From Candidatus Marinacidobacterales bacterium (lineage in GTDB: Bacteria; Acidobacteriota; Vicinamibacteria; Marinacidobacterales; DATDRI01), in the NCBI GenBank assembly GCA_965222425.1, contig CBDCTW010000008.1, positions 178,248 through 242,247 on the forward strand: a stretch of DNA of 64,000 nucleotides, in the 5' to 3' direction. The translations under genes were made by a program, and so were the position numbers. Below are positions 4,634 through 57,513 of this stretch, piece by piece. Each line of letters opens with the position of its first letter. The first letter of the stretch is position 1. The notes beneath the pieces were generated by a model. The model was not told the DNA's origin. It did no database searches and saw only the letters and a program-made list of their open reading frames with translations.

Positions 4634-5868
<1,235 letters not shown>

Positions 5869-6203
5869 AACAGTCTCCGGAAAACCCGGGGCGGTTCACT
5901 AGGCTTTCCCTCAATTGGGTCGACTTGCCCGAAGGCAGCTTCACCACCAATCTGGTTCGGTTGTGGGTCAACTACATGATCTCGCCGCGTATCTTCTTGG
6001 GCGCACTGGTGCAGTACAATTCAAGCGACAATCTGGCCGCAACCAACATCCGCTTTCGCTGGGAGTATCAGCCGGGGAGTGACTTCTTTGTCGTGTACAG
6101 CGACGGAAGAGACGCGCTTCTGCTCGATGATAGAGGATTGCCGCGGCTAGAGACACGCTCCTTGGTCATCAAGTTCACACGATTCTTCCGGTTCTAGCCC
6201 GAT

Positions 6204-7041: not shown

Positions 7042-7334
7042 CTCGAGATGCCCCGATACTTGCCGTCCTGCCTTCTCATTATCAAGAACTACCTCGAGGC
7101 CTGAGAAAAGTGTCGGAAATCTAACAGCCCGGTGAGCCCAACTGCGGCAACTATAGTAGTAGTATCGGAGGAAGGGACCCATAGTACCATGATTCGCAGC
7201 CATCCTCACCGTAACTCTGTGCGGCGCCGGTTTCCTTTCCTCAACGCCAACGACGTACCGTGAATGGCGAGGTCCAGTTTCGAGGTCTCTAAGTAGGCAG
7301 AAATAGTGTACGATCCGACCTATCTCCGAAAATC

Positions 7335-8393
7335 ATGGCCAAGCAGCGCGTCGCGGTTTTGTACGATATCTGGTGGGACGATGACGATGCGCCGCCAGAG
7401 AAGCCGCGCAGCGGCAAACCGCGCAGCGGCAAACCGCGCAAACGTGAGAAGGAAGTTCACGAAGAGGTGTACGCCACTCTCAAGAAGCTAGGCTACCAAC
7501 CTTTCTATTGTGTTCTGGACGGCGAGCCCACATCGCTCGCCAAATTAGCCTCGTCCGAGGCGGCGCTCATTTTCAATCTTACCGAGTCCTACGCCGGCGA
7601 CGACACCAAAGACATGCACATTGCCGCGTTTTTGGACCTGATGAGAAAGAAGTACACCGGAGGGGGTCCTCACGCCTTGCATCTGGCCCAGGACAAGACA
7701 CTAGCGAAAAAGCTTCTTTCGTTTCACGGCATTCGGACTCCTTATTTCGTAGTTTCCTATCGGGGCAAGACCGATTGGGCCGATGATATTTCATTTCCTT
7801 TGATCGTGAAGCCTCAGGCCGAGGACGGCTCCATCGGGATCGACGCCGGTTCGGTGGTCACGAGCGTCAAAGAGCTGATGCAGCGGATCGACTACATTCA
7901 CACCCGCTTCGACAGCCCCGCCTTGATCGAAGAGTACATCGAAGGCCGCGAGATTTATGTAGGCGTGGTAGGGAACGAAAGGCCAGAAGCCCTGCCGTTG
8001 GTCGAGCTGGACCTTTCTCGGGTTCCCGGCGATGTGCCGAAGATCGCGGGTACCGAAGTCAAATGGTTGAAGGAGACCAAACTCTATAAAGTCACCGAGG
8101 CTTTCATGCCCGACGATCTTCCGGTTGAGACGGAGAAGTTTCTAAAGGAGACCGCGGTGGCGGCGTACCAGGCATTGAAGTGTCGTGACTACGGTCGGGT
8201 CGATATTCGACTGGCCAAGGACGGCACGGTGTACGTTCTCGAAGTGAACCCCAACCCATGGCTCGCTTCGTTCACCGAGTTCTCGATGGCCTGGCGAGGC
8301 ACCGGGCGCACGTATCCGCAGCTCATTCAATACATCGTGGATATGGCTTTCGCCCGGTACGCGCAGCCCGCGCCGGTGCAAGCTCCAGAGTGA
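7335..8393 (+). CDS. D-alanine--D-alanine ligase-like ATP-grasp family protein.
   Basis: ATP-grasp motifs: ...FPLIVKPQAEDGSIGI...EEYIEGREIYVGVVG...GRVDIRLAKDGTVYVLEVNPNP.... N-terminal low-complexity region with PRSGKPRSGKPR. Confidence 0.65.
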   Translation: MAKQRVAVLYDIWWDDDDAPPEKPRSGKPRSGKPRKREKEVHEEVYATLKKLGYQPFYCVLDGEPTSLAKLASSEAALIFNLTESYAGDDTKDMHIAAFLDLMRKKYTGGGPHALHLAQDKTLAKKLLSFHGIRTPYFVVSYRGKTDWADDISFPLIVKPQAEDGSIGIDAGSVVTSVKELMQRIDYIHTRFDSPALIEEYIEGREIYVGVVGNERPEALPLVELDLSRVPGDVPKIAGTEVKWLKETKLYKVTEAFMPDDLPVETEKFLKETAVAAYQALKCRDYGRVDIRLAKDGTVYVLEVNPNPWLASFTEFSMAWRGTGRTYPQLIQYIVDMAFARYAQPAPVQAPE

Positions 8394-8415
8394 TCGGTTT
8401 ACTGATACAGGAGCA

Positions 8416-9381
8416 CTAGCTAAGCGACATCGCCGGATCCCCGAACAGGTGATAAATGCTGAGGAGCTCGAGGTAGCCACCGGACTCGGCAAACTTCGAC
8501 TGCGCGGCGAGGATGGCGTCTCCGAGAGTCGTGTGTCCTCCGTGTAAGAGCTCGGTGAGCAAGAGACGGTGATAGAAGTGAGCGGGTCTATCGAGACTCT
8601 CTCCACTGGGGGAAAAAGCAGCGATGATGCCCTTGCCGTCCGCCTTCAAGAGCGTCTCCGATAAGGAATCGTAAGTCGGGAACTGGAAGTAGCCGTTCAA
8701 GCAGTTCATGGTGAGAAGCAAGGGGTATTGCGCGGGATAGTCCAAAGACTCCACGTGGTCGGTGCGCAAGATGTTCTCGGACCACAAATTTATAGCACCG
8801 TGACCGATGTAGCTGACCAACGAAGCCCCCTCGCCGAAAGCATTGAGAATGGCGTCGTGAGTGGCGGCGGTCCCCAGGTCGTCGAGATAGATCTTGTGAA
8901 CGTCGTTGCCTGAGAGAACCGTGGCGGCTAACTCTTCGGCATGGGCCTCGAAGTCCCCGGCTCTTGGGTCGGGCCGGTCGGCAATGAGCACCGCCCGACC
9001 ATGAAGTCCCATACTTTCCGTTTCATAAGCGACGATCTTGTTCACCATGGCCTGGGCTTCTTCGAGATTGGCGGCCGGGAGTCTTCCAATCGTGAGGTCG
9101 GGCAGCAAGTCGTCCCCGTTGACCGCGGCATAGGCGGGGTCGGAAGCGGTCCAGAGGTAGTTGGTGTTCAACGGATACGGGGGTACCTGGTTTTGGACAC
9201 CCCATCCGAAGTAGTCCTTGAAGTCGAACGTTGCGTCCCCGAGGAGCAAGACGTATCGAGGAGGAGTCCTCCAGTGATGGTATGCGTGCTCGAGGAAGCC
9301 CCGTATCGCTTCAGGCCGGGTCTCGCCATGACCGAACTCGGAGTAGATCTGCTCGATGGGAACGGCGAGTGGGGTGAGACC
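8416..9381 (-). pseudogene. Peptidase C25 (gingipain-like) family gene, truncated at its 5' end.
   Basis: ...PLAVPIEQIYSEFGHGETRPEAIRGFLEHAYHHWRTPPRYVLLLGDATFDF...HGAINLW...LLLTMNCLNGYF. The frame is open upstream only to a TAA at 9382-9384, and the sequence beyond that is unrelated. Confidence 0.55.
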
Positions 9382-14698: not shown

Positions 14699-15151
14699 TT
14701 AACGTACGCCACCCGAGCGAACCAGTGTTCGAGTCGAGATGGCTCCGAGGGCCAGGGCGGCAAGTATCCAGAAAGGCCACAACGGCTGTAGGAACAAGCC
14801 CCAGAGGAGCAAGACGCCAACTGCTACGAGCCCTGCCAATCGGAAGCTGGTGTAAAGAATCATTACCCGCCGCGAGTCGACGATCAACAAGAAGTCGGTC
14901 GGCAGCCACACGAGCAAGAGCTCGTTATAGCGGAGCTCGGCAAGTGGAGAGATGGCCGCTAGCAACACAAGGAGGACACCGACGGTTCCGGAGAGAGCTC
15001 CGAACACGAACCGAAGCGCGCGGGATGCAGCGGGCGTCCCCAACACGATGAGCAATGCGCTCCCCAAGCCGATTCCCAGCGCCAGTCCCCGACGGTGAGT
15101 GACGAGCCATACCACGGGCCATGCCCCAGGCCATGCCCTGCCTTGGTGCAC
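14699..15151 (-). CDS. Hydrophobic membrane protein of unknown function. Its 5' end runs into the left inverted repeat of the IS5-family element, so it is possibly disrupted.
   Basis: Four or five predicted transmembrane segments. The start of the ORF lies inside the IS inverted repeat (15139-15156). Confidence 0.3.
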
Positions 15152-16225
15152 AACTCGCGATCTCGGTCCACAATTGTCCTGTACTCGCGGATACGATGTT
15201 CCCCATGAGCATTTTCAAACGCACTCAGCGGAAGTATGTGAAGAAGGCCTATCGCGTGAGGAATTGGCGTGAATATGAGGCGGGTCTACGCAACCGCGGG
15301 AGCCTGACCGTCTGGGTCTCGCTCACCGCCGGCAAGCTTGTGAACTGGGACGCGCCCCGGCCGAGGAGGAGGAAACCGGGCCGTCAACGCAAGTACTCGA
15401 ACCACGCCATCGAGACGGCTGTCACCCTGGGCATGGTGTTTCATCTGTCGTCTAGGCAGAGCGAGGGATTGCTGCGGTCGTTGTTCGCTCTGATGAAGCT
15501 AGACAATGATGTGCCCGATCACACCACGATCTTGAGGCGCAAGGCGAAGCTGGGTAAGGTCCCCTTCTACCAAGACAAGCAGAAGACGCCGTTGCACATC
15601 TTGATCGACAGCAGCGGTCTCGCTGTCCACGCCGGCCAGCTGCGCAGAGCACAAAAGAGCAGGGACTATCGCAAGCTCCATCTGTGTGTCGACGAGCAGA
15701 GTGGCGAAGTCATCGCCTGCGAGCTGACCAGCAAAAGAGCCCGCGATTCATCGCGGGTTGCATCGCTTGTCGGACCGATCGACACTCCCATCTCATCGGC
15801 CAGAGCTGACACCGCATACGACGCCAGCGGCGTCTATGAGGCAATCGAGAATCACAGCGCTCATCGCTCGCCGAGGGTGCTGATACCGCCGCGCAAGGGC
15901 GCCCAGCTCGCATCGGGGCCGGCGAGCCGCCGACAGCGTAATCGCAACATTGCAGCACAAGCTCGGCTCGGCAAACGAAAGTGGCACACAGAATCGGGCT
16001 ACAGCAAACGGAGCAAAGTCGAGACAACGTTCCATCGCTACAAGGCTATCGTGGGCTCAACAATGCGAGCGAGAGGGTTGGCGGCACAGAGAGTCGAGGC
16101 AAGGATCGGGTGCAAGATTCTCAACACCATGACGGCGCTCGGGATGCCTGATAGCAAGATGATCGGATGATGGGAGTCGGGGCCAAGCGAGCTCTCGGCC
16201 TCTATCGGAGTTGTGCACCAAGGCA
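15139..16225 (+). mobile_element. IS5-family insertion sequence (about 1087 bp).
   Basis: Perfect 18-bp terminal inverted repeats, TGCCTTGGTGCACAACTC at 15139-15156 and GAGTTGTGCACCAAGGCA at 16208-16225. No clear target duplication found. Confidence 0.75.
15196..16170 (+). CDS. IS5-family (DDE_Tnp_1) transposase.
   Basis: MFPMSIFKRTQRKYVKKAYRVRNWREYEAGLRNRGSLTVWVS...HAIETAVTLGMVFHLSSRQ.... Confidence 0.75.
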   Translation: MFPMSIFKRTQRKYVKKAYRVRNWREYEAGLRNRGSLTVWVSLTAGKLVNWDAPRPRRRKPGRQRKYSNHAIETAVTLGMVFHLSSRQSEGLLRSLFALMKLDNDVPDHTTILRRKAKLGKVPFYQDKQKTPLHILIDSSGLAVHAGQLRRAQKSRDYRKLHLCVDEQSGEVIACELTSKRARDSSRVASLVGPIDTPISSARADTAYDASGVYEAIENHSAHRSPRVLIPPRKGAQLASGPASRRQRNRNIAAQARLGKRKWHTESGYSKRSKVETTFHRYKAIVGSTMRARGLAAQRVEARIGCKILNTMTALGMPDSKMIG

Positions 16226-21412: not shown

Positions 21413-22812
21413 GGTGATGTCTTAAGATTCCTGTCAAAGAAAAACGATGTATGGTTCCCCAAGCCCAAACCCGTCCCCGTCATGGGGACAGAAAAGGAGA
21501 ACCATACATCATGGGAAAGGTACTACCGAGTCAGCGATTGCTCAAGCAGTTCGAGGAACAACTGGTATTTGGGGAGATGAATCTCTCGGAGATCGTCCGG
21601 TCGGGAGCTCAGATGATGCTTCAATATGCGTTGGAGCGCGAGGTGACGGAGGCGTTGGGTCGAAATTACTATGAGAACGCTCCGGCAACGACGAAGGAGA
21701 AGGGACGACGCAACGGGTATGAGTCGCATCGGGTCCTCACGGGCGAGGGAGCGGTAACGGTGCAAGTGCCGCAGGTACGAGAAACAGAGAAGGTGTTTCA
21801 GTCAAAGATTCTCGACGCCTACGTGAGCCGGACCGAGAAACTCGATGAACTGATCGCGCGGATGTACGTCCACGGGATGTCGACGCGTGACATTGAGGCG
21901 ACGTTCGCGGACGTGCTGAGCGGCACGGGTGTCTCGAAGTCGGTGGTGAGCCGGGTCACACGGTGTCTGTCGGAGGATTTCGAGGCGTTTCGAAAACGGG
22001 ATCTCTCGAACGAGAAGCTGTTGTATCTCGAGCTCGACGGCACGTACCTGCGCTACCACCAAGGAGCGGAGAGGAAAGAGCCCATCCTCGTTGCGACCGG
22101 CTATCGCGCTGATGGGACGCGAGTTCTTCTTCATATCGGTGTCGGCAACCGAGAATCCTACGAGAACTGGAAGGGGTTCTTGCAGGAGATGGTGGCCCGA
22201 GGAATGAGGGAGCCGTTGCTCATCGTGACGGACGGGAATCCTGGAGTGCTCAAAGCGATCGCAGAGGTCTTCCCTCGAAGCCTCAAGCAACGTTGCCAGA
22301 AGCACCGCCTCGAGAACATCCTGGGCAAGGCTCCGAAGGAAGTGCGCGACGAACTCAAGGCGGCCATCCTTGAGTCGTTCCATGCGAACAGCTACGAGCA
22401 AGGGCTGAAGAAGGGTCGGGAGGTGATCGCTCGGTACCGCCAACGATTCCCGAGCGCGATGAAGTGCATGGAAGAGACCCTCGAAGCGTGTCTTCAGGCG
22501 CTGCGCCTTCCTGCGGCGCATCACAAAAGGCTTCGCACGTCGAATCTACTTGAGCGCACGTTCGGAGAGCACAAACGTCGCACAAAGGTCATTCCTCACT
22601 TCTTCACCGAGGAGGCCGCGATGAAACTCTCGTTCGCTGTGCTCTTGGCCGTCGCAAACAAATGGCGCGGCGTGAGGATGGATGTCTTCGCCGCTAGGAA
22701 AGTCGAGGAGCTTCGCAACGAGCTTCTCCCGCAAGGCACGTCGGAGGAATCAGCAGCTTAACCGAGCGCGGGGAACCGTACGAAGATTTGACAGGAAAAT
22801 TAAGACTTGACC
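21413..22812 (+). mobile_element. IS256-family insertion sequence, copy A (1400 bp).
   Basis: Inverted repeats GGTGATGTCTTAAGATTCCTGTCAAAG and TTGACAGGAAAATTAAGACTTGACC. Perfect 8-bp target duplication GAGGTATG at 21405-21412 and 22813-22820. Confidence 0.9.
21511..22761 (+). CDS. IS256-family (Mutator-type) transposase.
   Basis: MGKVLPSQRLLKQFEEQ...LYLELDGTYLRYHQG...LIVTDGNPGVLKAI...QRCQKHRLENILGKAP.... Confidence 0.9.
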   Translation: MGKVLPSQRLLKQFEEQLVFGEMNLSEIVRSGAQMMLQYALEREVTEALGRNYYENAPATTKEKGRRNGYESHRVLTGEGAVTVQVPQVRETEKVFQSKILDAYVSRTEKLDELIARMYVHGMSTRDIEATFADVLSGTGVSKSVVSRVTRCLSEDFEAFRKRDLSNEKLLYLELDGTYLRYHQGAERKEPILVATGYRADGTRVLLHIGVGNRESYENWKGFLQEMVARGMREPLLIVTDGNPGVLKAIAEVFPRSLKQRCQKHRLENILGKAPKEVRDELKAAILESFHANSYEQGLKKGREVIARYRQRFPSAMKCMEETLEACLQALRLPAAHHKRLRTSNLLERTFGEHKRRTKVIPHFFTEEAAMKLSFAVLLAVANKWRGVRMDVFAARKVEELRNELLPQGTSEESAA

Positions 22813-22827
22813 GAGGTATGTGCCGAA

Positions 22828-35895: not shown

Positions 35896-38800
35896 TCAGC
35901 CTCCGAAGCGATAGGTCAGTGCCACCTTGAACCGGCGCCCCTTCGGGTCGTGCGTGAAGCCGTCGTACGACTGCTCGATGTTGGCCCATGGCGGCAAAGT
36001 GCCGGTCAGGTTCAGCGCATAGAGCGTGATGTCGATCCCGCTGCCTGGGAAGCGCCACAGGAAGCTCGCATCCCACGTGAGGAACGGGTCGATGCGGGGG
36101 ACGGTGGTGTTGCTGCCACGGTCCCCGTAGGACGAGATGTAGCTCACATAGTTCGCGAAAGTGTATGTGTTCCAGGCGTACGAAGCCGACCACCGGCTCT
36201 TCCAGCGGGGTAGCGGCACCGCGATCGGGTGGGCGAAGTTCAGGTAGCCGGCCGTGTTCCGCTTGGCGTAGAGCGTCAGGTCCGTACCCTCCAGCATCAG
36301 GGCCTTTGTCTCGTACTCCACCGTGTAGGTGGAGTCCCAACTGGCCGATAGCTGGCCCGGTCCCGCGTCGAACCGGGTGGCGAAGTGCGTGTCGATCCCG
36401 GAGGTCGTGAGCCCCGGCCAGTTCACGAGGTCAATCTGGACGCGCTCAAGGTTCGCGGCGGCGCACCTGCTCTCAGGCATCAGGTCCGAGGCCCTGCCTC
36501 CCGGACAGATGATGAATGGCGACACGGCCTCCTGGGTCGCCGGATTGTCGCTGTTGTAGAGGCTGGTGATGGCATCGTAGGGCATCGAGCCGATCACGTT
36601 CTCGAAGTCGTAGCTCCAGTAGTCGACCGTCGCTTCGATGCTCCCCTTCAGGAAGAGCACGGCGCCGACGTTGTAGGTGAACGCCTGCTCGGGGAGGAGG
36701 TCAGGGCGCCCGAAACGGTCCACCGCCTGGTAGGCGCCTGTCTCCGAGATCCACTCGAGGGTCGTCAGCGGGCTGGTGTTGAGGTCGTCCAGCGACGGCG
36801 TCCGGAAGGTGGTCTGCACCGAGCCGCGCAGCGCCAGCGAGTAGTGGAGGTTCTCCGCCACCTGCAGGCGCCCGCCGATCTTCGGGTCGAAGCTACTGAC
36901 GTGGCGGTCGGCGACATTGTAGAACTCGTAGTTCGCAGCGATCTGCGTGTCGACCCTGGGCCCAACGCTCAGCGCGAGCTCGCCGAAGAACCGCTGCACC
37001 TGCTGGTCCGCGGCATAGGGGCGGTGGATGTTGGTGAAGAGGTAGGGGCCGAACCGGTCGCCCGCCGCGCAGCCCGCGTCGCCCGCCACCGAGCAAGGGT
37101 TCAGTGTGGCGTCGCCGGCATCGTTTGGATTGCCGTCGGCGCGCATCGCACGGTACTGGTACCCCACGGCGAAGTCGGCCACGTTCTCGACCAGGTTGCC
37201 GCTCAGCGTGGCGTCCGCCACGAACAGATCGGTCGTGCTGACCAAGTTCACTTCTTCGTTGAGCCATAGTCGCAACTGCTCCGGGTTCGCCAGGCCGGCG
37301 ACGTAGTCGGGATTCGGCGTGTTCTCGAACGGCGAGTCCGGTTGGTCGGAGTACTGGACGGCGTTGCTGAACGGGTTGTAATACATACACGGGCCCTGGC
37401 CCGCCACGGCGCCGTTGAGTGCTCCGAGCACCATGCCAGCCGGGGAGGTCTGATCCGCCACGACGCCGACGGCGCAGTCCGGCCCGCCGAAGCCGCGGAA
37501 GGCCCGGAAGATCCGATCGGTGTATACCGCCGGCAGGTTCAGATTGCCCTTGGCCCGGGAGTAGGAGACGCCGACGTCCCAATGAGCATCCCGTCCTCCA
37601 AGCAGGAAGTCGCCATCGACCGACCCCGCGATCCGCTGGGTTCGGGACTCTCGTCTCAGCCTGCGCCCGGGACCTGAGTTCCCAAACGGACGGCCGTTGA
37701 AATACCAGAGGTCGCTGCTGGCGCAGGCGCTGCTGGGGTCGGCCTTCCCGTCACCTGCGTAGCCGGAGCAGAACGCCTGCCGTCCCGGGTGGTCGGGCGC
37801 TACCTCCATGATGGTGGTGCTCGTCAGCGGGAAGGGCGGGTACGATGGCGTCGTGTACCAGTTCGGAATCGTCGCATTGGCCCAGAGACCCTCGACGTGG
37901 TAATTAGTCCGCGCGTTCAGGGGGCCATTGAGCTCGACGAAGGCGCGGGTCTGTTGCTGCTCGTCGATTAGATTGTCGTACGGCGCGTAGCGGAACCGGC
38001 AGGTCCAGCCCTCGTCCTGGCCACCGAATTCCGTGCACCGGGGGTCGAAAACATCGGCCGTCCATGGAACGGGGGCCCCGACAGCGAACGTGCCGGGATT
38101 CCCGAGGCTGGACCATCCGGCGCGGTTTCCCCCGACGTGCGTACTCAGCCGATCGAGAGTCCAGGGACGCTCCGCCATCTGCAGCTCCTGGCGGCCGACC
38201 CGTTCCGCGGCGAGTACCACGCTGGAATTGCCGATCCGTCCGCCCCAGATGCCGGCGACGGTCGTATCACCCGCGCTGTCGAAGTAGTCATGCGAGACGT
38301 TGAGCTCCAACCCCCGGAAATCACTGCGCGTCACGAAGTTGGCGACGCCGCCGACTGCGTCGGAGCCGTAAGTCGCCGCCGCGCCCTCCTTCAGTACCTC
38401 CAGCCTGCCGACCGCGATCGCCGGAATAGTGTTCACATCGACGAAACGCCCGCCGATGAGACGCGCGGGGACCGGCACGTGACGGCGGCCGTTGAACAGC
38501 ACGAGCGTCCGCGAGGCGCCGAGGCCGCGCAGGTTGACGTTGGCCACGTTCTCGGTGAGTGTCGAGGGCTGGTTGGAGTTGTACCAACTGCTCCGCTCGC
38601 CGATCACGCCGTGGCTCACGCTCAGGTTCTTGAAGAGATCGACGAGCTGCGTGGAGCCTTGCTGCTCAATCGTGTCGCGGCTGACCACCACGACCGCGTG
38701 GGGCATGTTGATCGCGGGCGCGTCGATGGCGGTGCCTGTCACCGTCACGGTCACTTCCTCGAACAGGCCGCCGACCCGCAGGCTGACGTCCACCGTCGGC

Positions 38801-39093: not shown

Positions 39094-39261
39094 TGCTACC
39101 TCCTCCTCATGTCGCTCGGGCTGCGAATATGACGTGCCGCTCACACGTCGCCATCGAGTCGCGGCCGTGGAGAACGTTTACATGGTTACATCAATTTGAA
39201 TCGGGTACTACCGCACCGTATTGCATCAAGGTTGTCCAACAGTGGTGACTGGGTAGCGAAC

Positions 39262-40661
39262 GGTCAAGTCTTAATTTTCCTGTCAAATCTCCGTACGGTT
39301 CCCCGCGCTCGGTTAAGCTGCTGATTTCTCCGACGTGCCTTGCGGGAGAAGCTCGTTGCGAAGCTCCTCGACTTTCCTAGCGGCGAAGACATCCATCCTC
39401 ACGCCGCGCCATTTGTTTGCGACGGCCAAGAGCACAGCGAACGAGAGTTTCGTCGCGGCCTCCTCGGTGAAGAAGTGAGGAATGACCTTTGTGCGACGTT
39501 TGTGCTCTCCGAACGTGCGCTCAAGTAGATTCGACGTGCGAAGCCTTTTGTGATGCGCCGCAGGAAGGCGTAGCGCCTGAAGACACGCTTCGAGGGTCTC
39601 TTCCATGCACTTCATCGCGCTCGGGAATCGTTGACGGTACCGAGTGATCACCTCCCGACCCTTCTTCAGCCCTTGCTCGTAGCTGTTCGCATGGAACGAC
39701 TCAAGGATGGCCGCCTTGAGTTCGTCGCGCACTTCCTTCGGAGCCTTGCCCAGGATGTTCTCGAGGCGGTGCTTCTGGCAACGTTGCTTGAGGCTTCGAG
39801 GGAAGACCTCTGCGATCGCTTTGAGCACTCCAGGATTCCCGTCCGTCACGATGAGTAACGGCTCCCTCATTCCTCGGGCCACCATCTCCTGCAAGAACCC
39901 CTTCCAGTTCTCGTAGGATTCTCGGTTGCCGACACCGATATGAAGAAGAACTCGCGTCCCATCAGCGCGATAGCCGGTCGCAACGAGGATGGGCTCTTTC
40001 CTCTCCGCTCCTTGGTGGTAGCGCAGGTACGTGCCGTCGAGCTCGAGATACAACAGCTTCTCGTTCGAGAGATCCCGTTTTCGAAACGCCTCGAAATCCT
40101 CCGACAGACACCGTGTGACCCGGCTCACCACCGACTTCGAGACACCCGTGCCGCTCAGCACGTCCGCGAACGTCGCCTCAATGTCACGCGTCGACATCCC
40201 GTGGACGTACATCCGCGCGATCAGTTCATCGAGTTTCTCGGTCCGGCTCACGTAGGCGTCGAGAATCTTTGACTGAAACACCTTCTCTGTTTCTCGTACC
40301 TGCGGCACTTGCACCGTTACCGCTCCCTCGCCCGTGAGGACCCGATGCGACTCATACCCGTTGCGTCGTCCCTTCTCCTTCGTCGTTGCCGGAGCGTTCT
40401 CATAGTAATTTCGACCCAACGCCTCCGTCACCTCGCGCTCCAACGCATATTGAAGCATCATCTGAGCTCCCGACCGGACGATCTCCGAGAGATTCATCTC
40501 CCCAAATACCAGTTGTTCCTCGAACTGCTTGAGCAATCGCTGACTCGGTAGTACCTTTCCCATGATGTATGGTTCTCCTTTTCTGTCCCCATGACGGGGA
40601 CGGGTTTGAGCTTGGGGAACCATACATCGTTTTTCTTTGACAGGAATCTTAAGACATCACC
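39262..40661 (-). mobile_element. IS256-family insertion sequence, copy B (1400 bp). Near-identical to copy A and in inverted orientation.
   Basis: Perfect 8-bp target duplication TAGCGAAC at 39254-39261 and 40662-40669. Same inverted repeats as copy A. Confidence 0.9.
39313..40563 (-). CDS. IS256-family transposase.
   Basis: Near-identical to 21511-22761. The two differ by about 3 aa (for example VIARYRQ versus VITRYRQ). Confidence 0.9.
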   Translation of the reverse strand: MGKVLPSQRLLKQFEEQLVFGEMNLSEIVRSGAQMMLQYALEREVTEALGRNYYENAPATTKEKGRRNGYESHRVLTGEGAVTVQVPQVRETEKVFQSKILDAYVSRTEKLDELIARMYVHGMSTRDIEATFADVLSGTGVSKSVVSRVTRCLSEDFEAFRKRDLSNEKLLYLELDGTYLRYHQGAERKEPILVATGYRADGTRVLLHIGVGNRESYENWKGFLQEMVARGMREPLLIVTDGNPGVLKAIAEVFPRSLKQRCQKHRLENILGKAPKEVRDELKAAILESFHANSYEQGLKKGREVITRYRQRFPSAMKCMEETLEACLQALRLPAAHHKRLRTSNLLERTFGEHKRRTKVIPHFFTEEAATKLSFAVLLAVANKWRGVRMDVFAARKVEELRNELLPQGTSEKSAA

Positions 40662-40711
40662 TAGCGAACCACAACACCCCCAGCGCAAAATATATATATT
40701 AAATTTGTAAG

Positions 40712-40981
40712 TTATTTACAGTAATAGTTTTTTACTGCATCGTACAAGACTACATCCTGCTGTCGACTCGTCCCGCCGTAGCTGTCGATCACGAAGCCTT
40801 CGCCCACTACTATTCCCCTGGGCAGGACCTGTTCCAGTTGATCCCTCACTGGCTGCTCTGCCGCAGCACCCACGGTCGATGGAGTTGTACCTGCTTTGGC
40901 GTCCTTGAATTCGTCGACGAGCCGCTCGCCAATACGGCGGATGAATCCATCCAGATTGAAGTGTTGCCGATTCCCAACCAA
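40712..40981 (-). CDS. Hypothetical protein. Its 3' end lies in an AT-rich patch and it may be a fragment.
   Basis: MVGNRQHFNLDGFIRRIGERLVDEFKD...VVLYDAVKNYYCK. It begins with a non-ATG start in the track. Confidence 0.25.
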   Translation of the reverse strand: MVGNRQHFNLDGFIRRIGERLVDEFKDAKAGTTPSTVGAAAEQPVRDQLEQVLPRGIVVGEGFVIDSYGGTSRQQDVVLYDAVKNYYCK

Positions 40982-41224
40982 CTTTGAGTGTCTTGGCCAG
41001 CTCGATACGCCACATCGCTGGCTCAGGGCATGTCAGCCTGCGCTCGGGGCCTGGCTACAAGCTGCTCGCTCAGCCCTTGAAGAGGGTCGGCCGCTCGATC
41101 TCACACAGCACGCAGACGGCGTCGCTATCAGGCTCGCGGTGGATGAGAACACCCTTCTGATCGACCAGGGAAACATCTGCCGGTACTTCGACTGCGACGA
41201 CGACCGTGGTCCTGTCGGCAGGCT

Positions 41225-41362
41225 TCATGGCGTTTGCCACATCCGGATTCGAGGTCAGCTGGTCGCTCGGGCTCCTGGTGACGATGACGATCCTCCTTGC
41301 GCTTGCCGCGGATTTCCTGCTCCTTCCGACGCTGCTGATTGCCGTCGACCGGAAAGAGTGAG
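41225..41362 (+). pseudogene. C-terminal fragment of an RND/MMPL-type transporter.
   Basis: ...LASGFEVSWSLGLLVTMTILLALAADFLLLPTLLIAVDRKE* resembles the last transmembrane helices of RND/MMPL permeases. The frame is not continuous upstream. Confidence 0.3.
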
Positions 41363-41449
41363 TGAATGCTCCCCTCTTGAGCGCCGTCGCTGACCATCGT
41401 AGCGGGCCTGACGGCCCGGCGGGCAGGTGAGAGATGCGACTCCGTGCCG

Positions 41450-42388
41450 TTATTGGGGCGCGGCGGCGCGGTCCAGGGCAGGCGGCAGGCTGAAGCGGAC
41501 GTTCTCGACGATGCCGTCCATCGTGGAGATTTCCAGGTCGGTGTACTCGCGCAGCTTCTCGATCAGGTCGTGCACCAGTTCCTCGGGGGTCGAGGCGCCG
41601 GCGGTAATGCCGATGCTCTTCTTCCCCCGCAACCATGCAGGATCGAGCTTCGACGGGTCCTCGAGCAGGTAGCTCGGCACGCCGCTGTCGTTGCTGACTT
41701 CGCACAAGCGGTTGGAGTTGGAGCTGTTCTGGGCGCCGACCACCAGCACCAGGTCTACGATGGAGGCCAGCGTGCGCACGGCAGCCTGACGGTTCTGGGT
41801 CGCGTAGCAGATGTCCTTGACGTCCGGACCGACGATTTTCGGGAATCGCCGCCGCAGGGCCGAGATCACGTCCAGGGTATCGTCGACCGACAGGGTCGTC
41901 TGGGTGATGTAGGCGACCTTGTCGGGGTCGCGTACCTGTAGCGCTTCCACCCCGTCCACATCGCCCACCAGAAAAACTGGCCCCGGAATCTGGCCGACGG
42001 TGCCTTCCACCTCGGGGTGGTTCTCGTGGCCGATCAGGATGATGTCGTAGCCGTTGGCTGCGTAGCGCCGGCCCTCTATGTGCACCTTGGAGACCAGCGG
42101 GCAGGTGGCATCCAGCGGACGCAGGCCGCGCACCGACGCATCCTGCTCGACCTTCTCCGACACGCCGTGGGCGCTGAACACCGTGATGGCCCCATTGGGA
42201 ATCTGATCGATCTGTTCGACGAAGCGTACGCCTTTCGCCTTCAGGTTTTCCACGACCCGAAGATTATGGACGATTTCGTGCCGCACATAGATTGGGGGCC
42301 CGTACTGTTGCAGCGCCGCTTCGACGATCTCGATGGCGCGCTCGACACCGGCACAAAACCCGCGCGGTTACGCTAGAATGACTTGCAT
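41450..42388 (-). pseudogene. ispH: 4-hydroxy-3-methylbut-2-enyl diphosphate reductase (IspH/LytB) with an in-frame TAA at codon 7.
   Basis: From the ATG at 42386-42388 the frame reads M-Q-V-I-L-A-TAA(42368-70)[35 protein letters not shown].... The invariant Asn of [15 protein letters not shown] is replaced by a stop. The rest of the protein (track ORF 41450..42286) is intact. Confidence 0.7.
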
Positions 42389-42600
42389 CGTTCTCACTTT
42401 GAATGACCGCTCCCTCTTTGGCTTCGTAGCTGTACAACACCGCGAGCCTCATCGCAGGGAATGCCTGCCTAGCGGACCGATGTCAACCACCCAGGGCCCG
42501 GACGAAGGCCTTGCCGGAAGCGCCCGGCTCCGCTTGACAGCCCCACGGTGAAGTCCATATAACTTCCATTAGGCGAAGAGAAAATGGGACAAGCGTCAGG

Positions 42601-43701
42601 ATGACGGCGTCCTCCTCGAACGTGTCGACGAAGGGCGACCTCGCCTACCAGGCTGCAATCCTGCAAGGCGTGTCCCGCACCTTTGCGCTCACGATTCCGC
42701 AGCTTCCAGGCGCTCTCCGTGACGTGGTGGGCAATGCCTATCTCCTGTGCCGAATCACAGACACCATTGAGGACGAGCCCACGCTGTCCGCCGGGCAGAA
42801 GCAGGCGTTTGCGGAACGCTTCGTCGAGGTCGTGGCCGGTCGAGAAGCAGCGGAGCCGTTCGCGCGCGAGCTCGGCGCGGGGCTGTCGTCGTCGTCGACC
42901 GCCAGCGAGCATGACCTGATCGCCAACACCGCCCGGGTCATCCGCATCACAAACGGGTTTCGTGCTGCCCAACGAGGCGCGCTCGAACGCTGCGTGCGGA
43001 TCATGGCGCACGGCATGGCGGAGTTTCAGCAGCACGTGACAGCCGCCGGCTTGAACGACCTGCCCCACCTCGATCGCTATTGCTACCACGTCGCCGGCGT
43101 GGTCGGCGAGATGCTCACCGAGCTGTTCTGCGACTACTCCGCCGAAATCAACGAACGTCGCAACGAACTGCTCCCGCTGGCAGTCTTCTTCGGCCAAGGG
43201 CTGCAGATGACCAACATCCTCAAGGATGTATGGGACGACCGGCAGCGCGGGGCGTGCTGGCTGCCGCGGGACATCTTCCTTGAAGCCGGGTTCGAGCTGC
43301 GCTCCCTGTCCGCGGGGCAAAATGACCCCCGCTTCACCGACGGGCTGTTCACGCTGGTGGGGATCGCCCGCCAGCATCTGGCGGACGCGTTGCGGTTCAT
43401 CCAGCTCATTCCGGCCCATGAAACCGCCATTCGCCGACACTGCCTGTGGGCCTTGGGGATGGCCGTGCTGACCCTGCGCCGCATTCACGCGACGCCAACG
43501 TTCCGGAACGAGCGGGAGGTCAAGATCTCGCGCCGCAGCGTGCGTGCGGTCACCGTAGTCACCAGCACCCTGGTGCGCTCGAATTTGGCGCTGACGCTCC
43601 TCTTCAAGGCGCTGACCCGCGGCCTCCCCCAAGCCGAAGCAGCACGGGCTCCGGACAAGCGTAAAAGCAAGCCCTTGAAGAGTATCCACCACAAGTCATG
43701 A
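42601..43701 (+). CDS. Squalene/phytoene synthase family protein (CrtB/HpnD-like head-to-head prenyltransferase).
   Basis: [10 protein letters not shown] signature and DTIEDE aspartate-rich motif. Confidence 0.75.
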
Positions 43702-43946
43702 GACCACGACATGGGCGCAGTTTCTTCGGAGTCACTGGGACACCCTTGCCGCTGCCGATTTCTTCACCACCGAAATCTGGACTCCCGCGGTTCTGGTTAC
43801 GTTCTACGTCTTGTTCGCGATTCAGCTGAAGACCCGCCGGGTCCATATCTCGATACCCACACCAAACCCGGACCGAGTCTTCATGAAACAAGTAGCGCTC
43901 GACCTTGCCGCGTTCGACGACAGCTTTCTCCGGGGCTACTCGCACC

Positions 43947-45040
43947 TGTGCCTTCTATTTATTCATCCGCACGCACCAAACTTGATTAATCTCCGGTCTG
44001 CCAGCACCATGCCGGCATGATTTCGTCGTTTGTTCGCGCTCTCATCTCTGCCTTCAAGGCTCGTCGCGAGCTGGCTCTCGAGAATGTCGCTCTTCGGCAG
44101 CAGCTCGCCGTCCTCCGCCGTTCCGTGAAACGGCCGCGGCTCTCGAATGCCGACCGCGGGTTTTGGGTGCTGTTGCGCAGAATCTGGACTGACTGGGAGA
44201 GCGTCCTCGTCATCGTGAAACCTGAGACGGTCATCCGCTGGCACCGTTGTGGGTTCAGACGATATTGGACTTGGAAGAGCCGACGGCGTAGGCCCGGACG
44301 ACCAGGCGTCGCTCCCGAAATACGTGAGCTGATACGGAACATGAGCAGGGCCAACCCTCTCTGGGGAGCTCCCCGCGTGCATGGCGAGCTGGCGAAGCTA
44401 GGCATCTCCATTTCCCAGGCAGCCGTCTCCAAGTATAGGGTTCGCCATCGCATGCCACCGTCCCATACTTGGCGGAGCTTTCTCGATAATCATGTAAAGG
44501 ACTTGGTGTCGCTCGACTTTTTCACTTTGCCGACCGCAACCTTCAGAGTTCTGTTCATCTTCATCGTCCTTCGCCACGACCGTCGCCGTATCGTTCATTT
44601 CAATGTCACCGAACATCCTTCTGCCGAGTGGACGGCGCAGCAAATGGTCGATGCTTTTCCATGGGACACGGCGCCTCGGTACCTGGTACGGGATCGAGAC
44701 CAGACCTACGGAGCGTACTTCGATACTCGCGTCGACGGTCTCGGGATAGAGCAGGTCCTTACCGCACCGCGCTCCCCGTGGCAGAATCCATTTGTCGAAA
44801 GGATAATCGGCTCCATTCGACGTGAGTGTCTCGACCATGTGATTGTCCTCGACGAGCGGCACCTGAGGCGAATCCTACGCAAATACGTCGACTACTATCA
44901 TTCGTGCCGGACTCATTTGTCGCTTGAGAAGGACGCGCCCGAGCCTCGCCGAGTAGAGTCACCGGCGATGGGCAAAGTCAGTGCCATTCCAAAGGTCGGT
45001 GGTCTCCATCATTGTTACACTCGACGCGCTGCTTGAGTCC
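43947..45040 (+). mobile_element. IS481-like insertion sequence, family E. The left end and the transposase are present, but the right end is not recognisable.
   Basis: Left end CCTGTGCCTTCTATTTATTCATCCGC.... The matching right-end motif (...GCGGATGAATAAATAGAAGGCACAGG) is seen only at 19899-19923 and 55438-55462. Confidence 0.55.
44017..45036 (+). CDS. Transposase with helix-turn-helix and rve integrase-core domains (IS481-like).
   Basis: ...[65 protein letters not shown].... Confidence 0.75.
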   Translation: MISSFVRALISAFKARRELALENVALRQQLAVLRRSVKRPRLSNADRGFWVLLRRIWTDWESVLVIVKPETVIRWHRCGFRRYWTWKSRRRRPGRPGVAPEIRELIRNMSRANPLWGAPRVHGELAKLGISISQAAVSKYRVRHRMPPSHTWRSFLDNHVKDLVSLDFFTLPTATFRVLFIFIVLRHDRRRIVHFNVTEHPSAEWTAQQMVDAFPWDTAPRYLVRDRDQTYGAYFDTRVDGLGIEQVLTAPRSPWQNPFVERIIGSIRRECLDHVIVLDERHLRRILRKYVDYYHSCRTHLSLEKDAPEPRRVESPAMGKVSAIPKVGGLHHCYTRRAA

Positions 45041-45248
45041 GATCCGCTCGGAACGGCTGCCGGACTTCGCACCAGCTTACACCTCTACCCCTGAGTAGAG
45101 CCGACGCCGGCTCTTAAAACGTCCTACATGAAGACGACCAAAGCATCCTGGTTGCAGGAAGTTCGCCAATCTCATACAGCTCAAGTTTATGGAAGGGACA
45201 CCTGATGGAGCGGGGCGCCGGTATCGTAACGCCGGGGCGTGTCGCAGC

Positions 45249-50484: not shown

Positions 50485-51902
50485 TGTGCCAAAACTCGGC
50501 CCTTTTGAAATAGGCCATAAATCAGCAGCTTAGTGTCTGTGTTTGCGACTGGGCCAAGGGCCGTAGGCTTTACAATCGTCTGGCCCGAGGGTGTTATCTT
50601 CAAATCCATGATGACGTACCATGTGCAATTCCTACTGCTCGTTCTGGCTGGCTGGGTCAACCGCCAGCAGCAGGATGTGATCGACTACCTGCAAGAGGAG
50701 AACCGTGTGCTCCGAGCCGGGCTTCGGGGCAAGCGTCTCAGGCTCTCTGACGACGACCGGCGCAGGCTCGCGGTCAAGGCCCAAGCTTTAGGCCGCGAGG
50801 CGCTGGCCCAGATTGCGTCCGTTGCCACACCCGCTACGCTTGTGCGCTGGTACCGCCACCTCATCGCAGCCAAGTACGATGGCAGCAAGAACCGGAGCCC
50901 AGGCCGACCTCCGACGGCGAAGGACATCCGTGAGCTCATTGTGCGCGTGGCGCGGGAGAACCCGACGTGGGGATATACGCGCCTGCGAGGCGCACTCAAG
51001 AACCTCGGACATGAACTCGGACGCAACACCATCAAGAGGCTCCTCGCCGAGCACGGTATCGCGCCGGCTCCGGAGCGGGGCAAGAGCATGTCGTGGAGCA
51101 CTTTCCTCAAGGCTCATTGGGGCGCCATCGCTGCGACAGACCTGTTCACCGTCGAGGTTGTGAACCCGTTCGGGCTCGTCCGCTACCATGTCCTGTTTGT
51201 CATCGATATCGCCACTCGCTGCGTGTGCATCGGTGGGATGACCTCGGACCCAAACGGGGAGTGGATGAAGCAGGCGGCAAGAAACCTCACGGACGTGTGG
51301 GATGGTTTCCTCCTTGGCAAGCGGTACCTCATCCACGACCGGGACCCGCTATTCACCGAGGCGGTACATGGGCTCTTGAGAGATTCAGGTGTGAAGCCCC
51401 TCCGCCTTCCCGCTAATAGTCCGAATCTGAACGCATACGCGGAAAGATTCGTTCTCTCCATACGTCGAGAGTGTCTCGACCGCTTCGTACCTCTCAATGA
51501 GCGACACCTGCGGACAGCGGTAACCGAATACGTAGTGCACTATCACACAGAACGGAATCACCAAGGTCTCGGCGACGAGCTCCTCACACCTCTGCCGGCA
51601 AGCGCGAATGACGCTGGCCCCATCGTGTCGCGAGAGCGACTTGGGGGCATTCTCAACTACTACTGCCGTGCCGCGTAGATGGTCGCCGGCGACGGTAGCC
51701 CCTCGGCGGGCTCGACCGGCGTAGCGTGGAAACAGCTTCAGGAACATGCTTCGATATTCGCTCTCGACTAGGTGGTCATCTGCATGGTGACGACCCGCCC
51801 GCCCAAGACGATTGTAAAGCCCACGGCCCTTGGCCCGGTCGCAAACACAGACACTAAGTTGCTGATTTATGGCCTATTTCAAAAGGGCCGAGTTTTGGCA
51901 CA
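50485..51902 (+). mobile_element. Intact IS481-like insertion sequence, ISx (about 1.42 kb), with unusually long inverted ends.
   Basis: The ends, matching over about 95 bp, read TGTGCCAAAACTCGGCCCTTTTGAAATAGGCCATAAATCAGCAGCTTAGTGTCTGTGTTTGCGAC...GGGCCAAGGGCCGT.GGCTTTACAATCGTCT and the reverse complement at 51902. Flanked by GTCC/GGAC. Confidence 0.8.
50608..51678 (+). CDS. ISx transposase (helix-turn-helix and rve integrase core).
   Basis: [38 protein letters not shown]...[50 protein letters not shown].... Confidence 0.8.
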
Positions 51903-52107: not shown

Positions 52108-52428
52108 TTAGACATTGGAGGCAAAATTCTCACCAGTTCTGATTTTTCGTCGGATCTCCCTCTTCGTTGCATTCACCGCGTAGTCTTTATCGCCACCTTC
52201 CACTGTTGCGACAACTCGGCCACGTGATCGGTCAGGAGGACACCGTTCGCATATGAAATCCGTTATTGCACGAAGATAATCTTCACTGTAAACCAGTTCC
52301 GCATCACAGCGTGGGCAGTAACACCAAAGACTGGAGATCTCGCGACCAATCCATGACCAACGCCATTTTGCTCCGTACAGCATATCTTCGGTATAGCTTC
52401 CATATGTTGGTTCATTCCGTGGCCAAAG
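52108..52428 (-). CDS. Small zinc-ribbon-like protein (CxxC...CxxC), possibly the 3' part of a gene split by IS3 copy 2.
   Basis: ...WCYCPRCDAELVYSEDYLRAITDFICERCPPD.... The frame stays open up to the IS boundary at 52428. Confidence 0.3.
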   Translation of the reverse strand, partial: LWPRNEPTYGSYTEDMLYGAKWRWSWIGREISSLWCYCPRCDAELVYSEDYLRAITDFICERCPPDRSRGRVVATVEGGDKDYAVNATKREIRRKIRTGENFASNV

Positions 52429-52478
52429 TGAACCGCCCCGGGTTTCCCGGAGACTCCAACTCTTGAGAGGATGGAGTC

Positions 52479-53713
<1,235 letters not shown>

Positions 53714-53743
53714 AACAGTCTCCGGAAAACCCGGGGCGGTTCA

Positions 53744-55001: not shown

Positions 55002-55018
55002 GACCGGCGAGAGCCTCC

Positions 55019-55462
55019 TGTGCCTTCTATTTATTCATCCGCGCGCCCAGAACTTGATTGATCTCCGGTCTGTCGGCACCATGCCTGCATGGTTTCGTCG
55101 TTCGTTCGCGCTCTCATCTCTGCCTTCAAGGTTCGTCGCGAGCTAGCTCTTGAGAATGTCGCTTTTCGGCAGCAGCTCGCCGTCCTCCGTCGTTCGGTGA
55201 AACGGACGCGGCTCTCGAATGTCGACCGCGGGTTTTGGGTGCTGTTGCGCAGAATCTGGACTTACTGGGAGGGATGTGTCCCGAGGTTCGTGGAAAAAGA
55301 ACGACGCGCCCGTCCTGTGCCAAAACTCGGCCCTTTTGAAATAGCCCACAAATCAGCAGCTTAGACGCCCTTGGAATCCGGGCAAAATCCAGGGTATTTC
55401 GCGCCGCAGGGCTGACTTCCGACACCCATGAGCTGGCGGATGAATAAATAGAAGGCACAGGC
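55019..55462 (+). repeat. Nested IS debris. A 5' fragment of a family-E IS lies at 55019 to about 55267 and includes 62 N-terminal transposase codons. The left inverted repeat of IS256-family G lies at 55268-55310. A 145-bp chimeric MITE-like unit lies at 55318-55462, with an ISx-type end at one side and a family-E-type end at the other.
   Basis: CCTGTGCCTTCTATTTATTCATCCGC... at 55019. GGGATGTGTCCCGAGGTTCGTGGAAAAAGAACG is the reverse complement of the flank at 57520-57555. The MITE-like unit reads TGTGCCAAAACTCGGCCCTTTTGAAATAGCCCACAAATCAGCAGCTTAGACGCCC...GGATGAATAAATAGAAGGCACAGG. Confidence 0.55.
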
Positions 55463-55503: not shown

Positions 55504-56681
55504 ATGATCCGTTCGTTGGTCCCCCTTGGTCTAATGCACGTTCACGAGTTGCTCGACGACGAAGTGAAGGCGTTGGCGGGAGAGCGATCCTCTCGCAAGG
55601 ACGAGCTGGAGCGCGGTCGCCGTCCCGGAAGCAACCCGGGCACGGTAGGGCTTGGCGGCCAGCGGGTACCGATCCGTGTGCCACGGGTTCGGAGCATCGA
55701 GGGAGGAGAGATTCCGCTTCGCTGCTACGAGGCGTTGAGCCACGGCGGTGAGGTGAATGATCTTCTGCTGAAACGAGTTCTGTACGGAATCTCTTGTTGC
55801 AACTACGAGGCGGCAGCGGAAGCGATTCCGGGCGCCATCGGGCTGTCGAGCTCAACGGTGTCCCGAGGGTTCGTGCAAGCGAGCGCTGCGAAGCTGCGGG
55901 AGATGCAGGAACGGGATCTGACCGGCGAGGATGTGGTGGCGCTGTTTCTGGATGGGAAGACATTCGCCGAGGCAACGATGGTCGTGGCTCTGGGCATCAC
56001 GCTTTGCGGGGAAAAACGCTTCTTGGGCTTCGTGGAGACGGACACGGAGAACGCGCAGGTGTTGACGCCGTTCCTGCGTTCACTGCTCGAGCGGGGACTC
56101 GATATCTCCCAGGGTCTGCTGGTGATCATCGACGGCGGCAAGGGTCTCCAGGCGGCAGTCAAGAAGGCATTCCGTAACGGGCCCTGATACAACGCTGCCA
56201 GTGGCACAAACGTGAAAACGTAGTGAGCTACCTGTCCAAGGGCGAGCAGGCGTCATGGCGCAAGCGGCTCCAGTGGGCCTACAACAGGCCGGAGTACGAA
56301 GAGGCCCTCACTGCGCTCGAGCAACTCCACGGTGAGTTAGAAGAGCGGAACCAATCCGCAGCTGGCAGCCTGGAGGAAGGCCTCGAGGAGACGCTGACGT
56401 TGCATCGACTCGGCGTGCACGCGGTGCTGGGCCGTTCGTTCAAGACGACGAACTGCCTTGAGTCCGTCAATGCTCTCGTCGAGGAACGCTGCGCGAAGGT
56501 CGACCACTGGAAGAACTCGAGCCAACGCCAGCGCTGGTTGGCAACGGCGCTCGTAGACATCGAACCGCGCTTGAGGAAGGTGGTGGGCTACCGCCATCTT
56601 CCCAAGCTTCGCGAAGCTCTCAAGCGGGAACTGAAGATCGAGGCGAAGACATCAACCGTATCGAAGAAGAAGGTCGCTTAA
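55504..56681 (+). pseudogene. IS256-family transposase, family H, with a frameshift between the second and third catalytic regions.
   Basis: Frame 1 ends ...VIIDGGKGLQAAVKKAFRNGP*. The conserved continuation LIQRCQWHKRENVVSYLSKGEQ... is in another frame (ORF 56223..56681). Confidence 0.65.
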
Positions 56682-56730
56682 ACGTGAGCCGTGGAGAGTT
56701 TCAACTAAGAATGGGCTTGACTCGAGCGCG

Positions 56731-57513
56731 GTGTCTCGCGTGGTTAGCTGGCTGAAGGAGCGCTTCGAGGAATGGCAGAACCGTGCTCTCAGCGAGGAGG
56801 TCTACGCGATCGTTTACCTGGACGGCTTCCACCTGAAAGTGCGGATGGCGAAACGTGTGATCAGCGTACCCGTACTGGTCGCGCTCGGGGTCGCGCCAGA
56901 CGGGCACAAACGTCTGTTGTCATTGCGTCTGGCGGTGAGCGAAGCCTCGACGCGTTGGGGCTCCGTGCTGGAGGGACTCCAGGCTCGAGGACTCCGGGCT
57001 CCCAAGCTAGTGATCAGCGACGGCCACAAGGGGCTGACGAAAGTGCTGGAGAAGTGGCCGGGGTGCCGGTTGCAGCGATGTACCGAGCACAAGCGCGCCG
57101 ACTTGCTCGAACATTGCCCGGCGCACGCACGCCGTGAGCTCCGGCGTGACTACAACCGGATCGTCTGCGCCAAGAACGGGATCGATGCTCGCAAAGCCTA
57201 TGACGAGCTCGTCGCCAAGTGGACGCCTCTCGCGCCGGCCGTCGTCCGAAGCCTAGAGGAGGCCGGTAATCAGCTGCTGACCTTCTACGAATTCCCTCGT
57301 GCCATGTGGAAATCGATTCGAACGACCCATGCTCTGGAGAATCTCAACCGCGAGTTTCGACGCCGGACGAAAACCCAAGCGTCGTTCTCCAGCGAGGAGT
57401 CCGCGGTCGCTTTGCTGTTTGGGCTTATCGCCTCTGGCCAGATTCAACTACGACGCATCGACGGCTACCAACGTCTGAGCGAGGTTCTCGAACACGCGAA
57501 GGTTGCCGCCTGA
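56731..57513 (+). pseudogene. IS256-family transposase, family G, with the N-terminus truncated or displaced. It starts about 25 aa before the first catalytic Asp. The right inverted repeat lies at about 57520-57555.
   Basis: ...VYLDGFHLKVRMA...LVISDGHKGLTKVLEKWPGCRLQRCTEHKRADLLEH.... The C-terminus is near-identical to the fragment at 50145-50476. Confidence 0.65.

Follow-up and report, generated by a model that had tools for sequence, protein, structure and literature searches.

The window analysed here is a 64,000-nucleotide (64-kb) stretch of contig CBDCTW010000008.1, from a bacterium of Candidatus Marinacidobacterales (Acidobacteriota), and our subject within it is an interrupted copy of ispH, the gene for the 4-hydroxy-3-methylbut-2-enyl diphosphate (HMBPP) reductase IspH (LytB), together with the squalene-synthase-like gene (sqs) that adjoins it. 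Related loci are referred to by their L numbers. The features at the centre of the locus are as follows:

41450..42388, minus strand: ispH (LytB, HMBPP reductase), probable pseudogene of 312 codons, with a nonsense codon at codon 7 and the rest intact
42368..42370, minus strand: the TAA nonsense codon, Gln7 to stop (CAA>TAA), one C>T transition on the coding strand at 42370
42389..42600: divergent intergenic region between ispH and sqs, 212 bp, of which 42389-42490 is deleted along with ispH in L004
42601..43701, plus strand: sqs, squalene-synthase-like, SQS_PSY family, 366 aa, intact (PF00494, E 1.2e-56)
41197..43947: core segment holding ispH and sqs, which recurs in related assemblies at 98.9-99.5% identity and in several genomic contexts

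The minus-strand ispH frame runs from ATG 42388-42386 to its end at TAA 41452-41450, and it carries an in-frame TAA at 42370-42368, codon 7, just as the original prediction, made from the letters of this DNA alone, had described. At its 5' end the minus strand reads ATG CAA GTC ATT CTA GCG TAA CCG CGC GGG TTT TGT GCC GGT GTC, giving [14 protein letters not shown] when translated across the stop. Because the stop is preceded by six codons that match the N-terminus of intact homologues exactly, we interpret this frame as an interrupted ispH and not as a chance open reading frame (ORF). Beyond the stop, the frame stays open for 305 codons, up to TAA 41452-41450, and the rest of the gene is intact, as had been claimed: these 305 residues match the full LYTB domain (Pfam PF02401, E 7.5e-93, profile positions 6-266 of 267) and score above the cut-offs of both the NCBIfam IspH equivalog NF002188 (456 bits vs 420) and TIGR00216 (315 vs 188). 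Searching the window with an intact protein (P0001, tblastn) returned this ispH at 99.4% identity over 312 aa.

Evaluating codon 7 across relatives, we found a simpler origin for the stop than the one first proposed, which had assumed an invariant Asn at this position and hence two changes, from AAC to TAA. Asn is the residue of Escherichia coli, but among about 55 aligned relatives the position is Gln nearly throughout (Lys in one, Arg in one), and it is Gln in 17 of the 17 close proteins that were fetched. Since the nearest DNA copies, the near-identical loci L005-L013, read CAA at codon 7, the stop represents a single CAA>TAA transition, with C>T transitions of this type being the commonest route to a nonsense codon.

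The position of the stop matters for the iron-sulfur cluster of the enzyme. In E. coli IspH, Cys12, Cys96 and Cys197 ligate a 4Fe-4S cluster, and the window's DNA encodes the aligned cysteines as Cys12 (42355-42353), Cys96 (42103-42101) and Cys194 (41809-41807). The Cys12 codon lies 3' of the stop and outside any translatable product, and because no start codon (ATG, GTG or TTG) occurs between the stop and the Cys12 codon, a restart cannot recover it. The first start 3' of the stop is at 42286, codon 34, which had been taken for a Met and is instead a GTG that corresponds to Val34 of the intact protein. What we asked of a functional ispH, a frame running uninterrupted from a start through Cys12 to the C-terminus, is absent here; the expectation that a restart forfeits the first Fe-S cysteine is borne out, and loss of Cys12 should abolish the 4Fe-4S cluster.

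Comparing the locus with related genomes, as the original prediction had proposed, we recovered the same TAA in relatives, the deletion of ispH in L004 and intact Gln7 copies elsewhere. Four further contigs, belonging to three other assemblies, carry the TAA at codon 7:

L001/L090: ERZ25068966, ctg517253, TAA at codon 7
L003: ERZ25068966, ctg564925, TAA at codon 7
L002: ERZ25069191, TAA at codon 7
L037: NCBI CBDFNJ010000001.1 (CBDFNJ01), TAA at codon 7

The TAA copies have three further linked variants in common, at 42529, 41965 and 43427, and the allele therefore arose once and was then inherited. Every other TAA copy has at least one additional inactivating lesion. L001 possesses a second nonsense codon (Q198, CAG>TAG), with ispH split into called fragments of 163 aa and 109 aa; L002 and L003 have ispH cut by an insertion sequence (IS) at the position equivalent to 41889; and L037 combines a change of codon 1 (ATG>ATA) with an IS cut at 41595. 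On a sister contig, the window's own locus (L004) is missing 41299-42490, which is the entire ispH, while retaining sqs; its flanks are 100% identical to the window over 40662-41298 and 99.8-100% identical from 42491 onward, and no obvious microhomology was seen at the ends of this 1192-bp deletion. Set beside these copies, the window's ispH is the least decayed member of a dead ispH lineage; it has only three private changes, all synonymous. A substitution census counted 9 nonsynonymous or nonsense vs 5 synonymous changes in the TAA lineage and 7 vs 10 in the intact lineage, a difference that is not significant: its direction fits relaxed constraint, with numbers too small for significance.

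Among near-identical copies (L005-L013, L037 and the window), all four combinations of ATG or ATA at codon 1 (42386) with CAA or TAA at codon 7 (42370) occur, and this distribution suggests either exchange (gene conversion) between copies or recurrent mutation. For the ATA copies, annotation begins at a GTG upstream and gives proteins of 315 aa (MRTIQVIL...).

Scanning species-representative genomes for ispH, we obtained a list of 80 matches, from which copy counts are to be read as lower bounds; taxon labels of loci are those of the record titles, by which the near-identical loci belong to Candidatus Marinacidobacterales (Acidobacteriota). The complete 9.2 Mb chromosome OZ240210.1 carries ispH intact at least twice, at 1.01 Mb and at 2.73 Mb, and CBDCNP010000002.1 possesses one intact and one 5'-truncated copy 26 kb apart. 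On ctg517253, a 17.9 kb contig, an intact Gln7 ispH (P0006) is separated by 7.5 kb from the TAA copy with two nonsense codons. The protein collection holds more than 20 distinct intact IspH variants at 98-99% identity, and the segment 41197-43947 (ispH and sqs) recurs, whole or in part, at 98.4-99.5% identity in many different genomic contexts of the lineage.

We interpret the stop as genuine and heritable, a nonsense allele (Gln7, CAA>TAA) by which one cluster-linked copy of ispH is inactivated, leaving a tolerated pseudogene of a redundant gene, an interpretation to which we assign a probability of roughly 0.8. It is of an ordinary kind, a nonsense pseudogene. Mechanistically, a C>T change at 42370 would have converted CAA to TAA and inactivated one cluster-associated ispH copy in an IS-rich genome, with a product that is presumably non-functional as translation would end after six residues and any restart would lack Cys12. 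The loss would be tolerated where the same genome has an intact ispH at another site to carry out the essential step of the methylerythritol phosphate (MEP) pathway, an arrangement seen in close relatives, while the cluster around ispH would be in the course of being broken up by IS activity. A dead paralog with another ispH, one of three options raised originally, is thus the best-supported of them by way of close relatives (P0006 at 7.5 kb; the OZ240210.1 pair), although the window itself does not supply the second copy. Several observations weigh against our interpretation: tblastn recovered no second ispH within the 64-kb window; for the metagenome-assembled genome (MAG) carrying L037 no intact ispH is among the 80 matches listed, and MAGs can be incomplete; and the window copy has no second lesion, its private changes being all synonymous, such that from this copy alone a pseudogene and a gene still somehow used are indistinguishable.

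The two failures to find a second copy would also fit an organism for which this is the sole ispH, either with a very recent deleterious lesion in a minority genotype or with precursors drawn from the host, the community or another route, as would the heavy IS activity and gene decay of the region (8 or more IS copies or fragments within the 64 kb). We nonetheless consider this unlikely. The allele occurs in several assemblies with later lesions and rearrangements, and because it has spread that far and had time for those further changes it is not a transient lethal genotype; moreover, an intact copy lies 7.5 kb away on a contig with the same allele, related chromosomes hold at least two copies, and intact variants of 98-99% identity are abundant in the same set of assemblies. 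All that stands of a very recent lesion, the second of the options first raised, is that the window copy has no other defect. That lack of a further defect would likewise suit the third option, a sequencing or consensus error in which position 42370 is really C and ispH undamaged, and related contigs do have names typical of long-read metagenome assemblies. Such an error is very improbable, however, given the identical T in four other contigs of three other assemblies (L001/L090, L002, L003, L037), its linkage to three more shared variants, the independent extra lesions of those TAA copies, and the nature of the change, which is a substitution and not a homopolymer indel.

Decoding of the TAA, by readthrough or by reassignment to Gln, would allow a full-length IspH still to be made, and it could appeal to the ancestral residue being Gln, to both nonsense codons (Q7 TAA; Q198 TAG in L001) falling at Gln codons, and to the C that follows the TAA here, a context that is weaker than the strongest for termination in E. 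coli. We find this explanation hard to credit, as a single transition is all that it takes to turn CAA/CAG into the stops TAA/TAG; TAA terminates 5 of the 20 well-supported (Pfam-backed) ORFs of the window, ispH itself included, whose terminal TAA stands at the same C-terminus as in homologues; no suppressor tRNA was found in the window, where the sole tRNA is a tRNA-Val; and in relatives the TAA copies have undergone additional truncation or deletion, which is unexpected for a gene in use. It is also scarcely believable that a short protein of 278 aa, begun at GTG 42286, has kept or gained a function: its ORF does remain open, but it would be made without residues 1-33, including Cys12 as one of three cluster ligands, no such product is on record, and relatives delete or truncate ispH.

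Alongside the probable nonsense pseudogene, we assessed what is left of the gene cluster around it. In relatives, the intact cluster comprises ispH, sqs, a 767-aa MMPL/HAE3 RND transporter with a sterol-sensing domain, and an MpaB-like protein of 386 aa (MPAB_Lcp_cat domain), an MpaB/Lcp-like oxygenase. The window holds the following remnants and IS elements:

41206..41361, plus strand: MMPL/HAE3 RND transporter remnant, the last 51 codons (41206-41358) and TGA 41359-41361
40712..40981, minus strand: DUF6602 fragment, 89 aa, first half of the domain model only, between the IS256 element and the MMPL remnant
39261..40661, minus strand: IS256/Mutator-family IS, transposase 39313-40623, with a 7-8 bp target duplication (TAGCGAA)
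21413..22813: second IS256-family copy, 99.4% identical to the 39261-40661 copy, with a 7-8 bp target duplication
about 43948..45200, plus strand: IS with rve_3 transposase (44017-45036), which parts sqs from the STAS/anti-sigma genes; its end is repeated at 55017-55271
4582-5898 and 52427-53743: IS3-like pair, 99% identical
15121-16170, 44017-45036, 50533-51678 and 55504-57513: further IS coordinates, including a DDE_Tnp_1 IS, two rve_3 IS and a split Mutator-type transposase

The MMPL remnant is 100% identical (tblastn) to residues 717-767 of the 767-aa MMPL of L005, the homology of the window to intact clusters ends at 41197, and the MpaB-like gene is gone from the window's cluster. The core segment has one IS element at about 0.5 kb on its left and another directly at its right edge, beyond which stands the STAS/anti-sigma gene group that is found on the other side of the cluster in L005 and L008. 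The DUF6602 fragment is likely another gene remnant. The window thus holds what is left of a four-gene cluster, with sqs alone still intact. Across the 64 kb, the IS load of at least 8 copies or fragments is set among chromosomal genes (lgt, ddl, tRNA-Val, a BCCT transporter). In L004, the IS256-family element is missing at the window's site 39261-40661 and sits instead inside a TonB-dependent receptor gene, which it splits (L004 3366-4767; window 38768-38775), a difference in position that shows ongoing transposition between near-identical strains.

Broken cluster copies were also seen on OZ240210.1 and CBDCNP010000002.1, and on each of them the damage is complementary. One OZ240210.1 copy has sqs cut by an IS240/IS6-family element with ispH, MMPL and MPAB intact (L005/L010 8245-9788), and the other has kept sqs and ispH with MMPL down to 80 codons. 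The two copies on CBDCNP010000002.1 (loci L013 and L020) lie 26 kb apart: sqs, ispH and one half of MMPL make up the first, while the second has MMPL, MPAB and an ispH that lacks codons 1-33. Relocated ispH or ispH-sqs copies occur in settings that resemble defence islands (L007 1-6301 and 17764-20948; L009 8631-14529; L090 720-1031 and 5847-6677), where the genes include restriction-modification, BrxA, a CBASS-like E2/ThiF/patatin set, DruA and a TIR-domain gene, along with serine recombinases and IS elements.

The adjoining gene at 42601-43701 had been called a prenyltransferase gene, and it is indeed an intact member of SQS_PSY, arranged divergently (head-to-head) with ispH. Its protein has [10 protein letters not shown] at residue 160 and both Asp-rich motifs of the SQS_PSY family, DTIED at residue 54 (42760-42774) and DVWDD at residue 209 (43225-43239), which align with DTLED and DYLED of human squalene synthase. 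The best of the models is the NCBIfam squalene synthase equivalog TIGR01559, at 107.4 bits against a cut-off of 286.75, followed by HpnD (77), HpnC (54) and CrtB (51); since the best model is squalene synthase and the score is below its cut-off, we file the gene as squalene-synthase-like. Human squalene synthase is also its best PDB match (E 2.4e-16, over residues 20-318). The 366-aa Sqs protein recurs letter for letter on four other contigs (ENA assemblies ERZ25068966 and ERZ25069191), and presumably the gene is either still used or simply not yet decayed. Within the 212-bp ispH/sqs intergenic region no match to the sigma-70 consensus was found, and when 41150-44050 was scanned for promoters and terminators, no site resembled a promoter and terminator-like sites were fewer than in shuffles.

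In a side comparison of loci L014-L084, for which sponge association is inferred from MAG names, we found the cluster well beyond the window's lineage. The ispH and sqs genes are adjacent in most of the 80 loci listed, and MMPL and MpaB-like genes are usually there too. The MAG labels span at least 5 phyla, with Acidobacteriota, Latescibacterota, Gemmatimonadota, Verrucomicrobiota and several gammaproteobacterial orders among them; the names include Vicinamibacterales, Longimicrobiales/Gemmatimonadaceae, Opitutales, Arenicellales, Porisulfidus and others. Identities to the window's lineage are:

IspH: 72-92%
Sqs: 57-80%
MMPL: 60-91%

By comparison, E. coli IspH has only about 54% identity to any cluster IspH, gammaproteobacterial members included. 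Three arrangements of the two genes occur (divergent, sqs>ispH and ispH>sqs). A neighbour-joining tree places sequences mostly by phylum, with some nesting, within a single tight clade, a pattern that suggests, but does not prove, old inter-phylum transfers followed by vertical descent. Beside MMPL, a LolA-like/DUF1329 gene is present in Latescibacterota (L017 6959-9396) and Opitutales (L040 10517-12684), with a further adjoining ORF that is DUF1302-like in L017 and has a counterpart without a Pfam match in L040; together, the LolA-like/DUF1329 and DUF1302-like additions suggest a putative lipid export apparatus spanning the envelope. The gene calls of L005 and L008 include what remains of the LolA-like gene, a piece of 78 aa. 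MAGs labelled Versatilivorator and Terriglobia (L043, L045, L049 and L050, about 7110-9245) have, in place of one sqs, a tandem pair of homologues downstream of ispH, with 58-65% identity to the Sqs of the window.

A broader and decidedly tentative interpretation, which we hold to be somewhat more doubtful than probable, is that the cluster could be a sponge-symbiont-specific, horizontally exchanged island that makes and exports a squalene-derived lipid, with ispH as an accessory, flux-boosting copy, and that it is duplicating and decaying in the IS-rich Marinacidobacterales. Literature searches on the lineage name and on the composition of the cluster returned no paper describing it.

For annotation, these results mean that the locus is to be flagged as ispH (pseudo) and not as a 278-aa protein, and the stop is not to be read as loss of the MEP pathway. 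They also illustrate how a single window can mislead, as the puzzle of an essential gene with a stop is gone once relatives show several copies. The unusual similarity of the sqs-ispH-transporter cluster between phyla of apparent sponge symbionts is relevant to which partner produces triterpenoid and sterol precursors in sponges, and of all these findings the cross-phylum cluster alone might be worth following up. The wider context bears on how IS expansion reshapes large symbiont genomes.

Among known systems, E. coli IspH/LytB (PDB 3KE8, 3F7T, 4H4C and others) aligns end to end with the window's gene (E 7e-102, about 54% identity), which conserves all three cysteines of the cluster along with the [15 protein letters not shown] and DICYAT motifs. 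Unlike the E. coli gene, the window's copy has a stop at codon 7, in a lineage with Gln where E. coli has Asn, and it adjoins a squalene-synthase-like gene and has several copies in relatives. Linkage of ispH to triterpenoid (hopanoid) genes is known from the hpnH-shc-ispH cluster of subdivision 1 Acidobacteria (PMC5462960). The locus described here resembles those hopanoid loci in linking ispH to squalene/triterpenoid lipid genes and an RND-type lipid transporter, and differs from them in that the partner is a single eukaryote-type squalene-synthase-like protein. None of shc, hpnH, hpnC, hpnD or hpnE was seen within 10 kb in relatives, and a cyclase domain was absent both from the genes called within 10 kb in L001-L009 and from the tested ORFs of L017 and L040. 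The cluster's MMPL scores far below both HpnN models (TIGR03480, 95.8 bits against a cut-off of 751.85; NF052374, 41.7 against 1100). We did not adopt a hopanoid-locus (hpn) label because the HpnN equivalogs fail and no cyclase was seen; from the original suggestion of an isoprenoid, hopanoid or carotenoid locus, what survives is a neighbour most like squalene synthase.

Single-enzyme bacterial squalene synthases are known from Methylococcus capsulatus and Thermosynechococcus (cited in PMC5462960), and bacterial squalene synthase transcripts have been mentioned for a sponge holobiont (PMC10070321). With the single-enzyme and human squalene synthases (PDB 1EZF, 3VJ8), the sqs product shares the SQS_PSY fold family and both the DxxED and DxxDD motifs. 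It differs from the single-enzyme synthases in scoring below the equivalog cut-off, and its activity is a putative one. In host-associated bacteria with expanded insertion sequences, IS-driven pseudogene formation is a general phenomenon, and the window is like such genomes in its high IS density, its strain-variable IS sites with target duplications, its truncated genes and its nonsense codon in a redundant gene, making it a textbook-type case.

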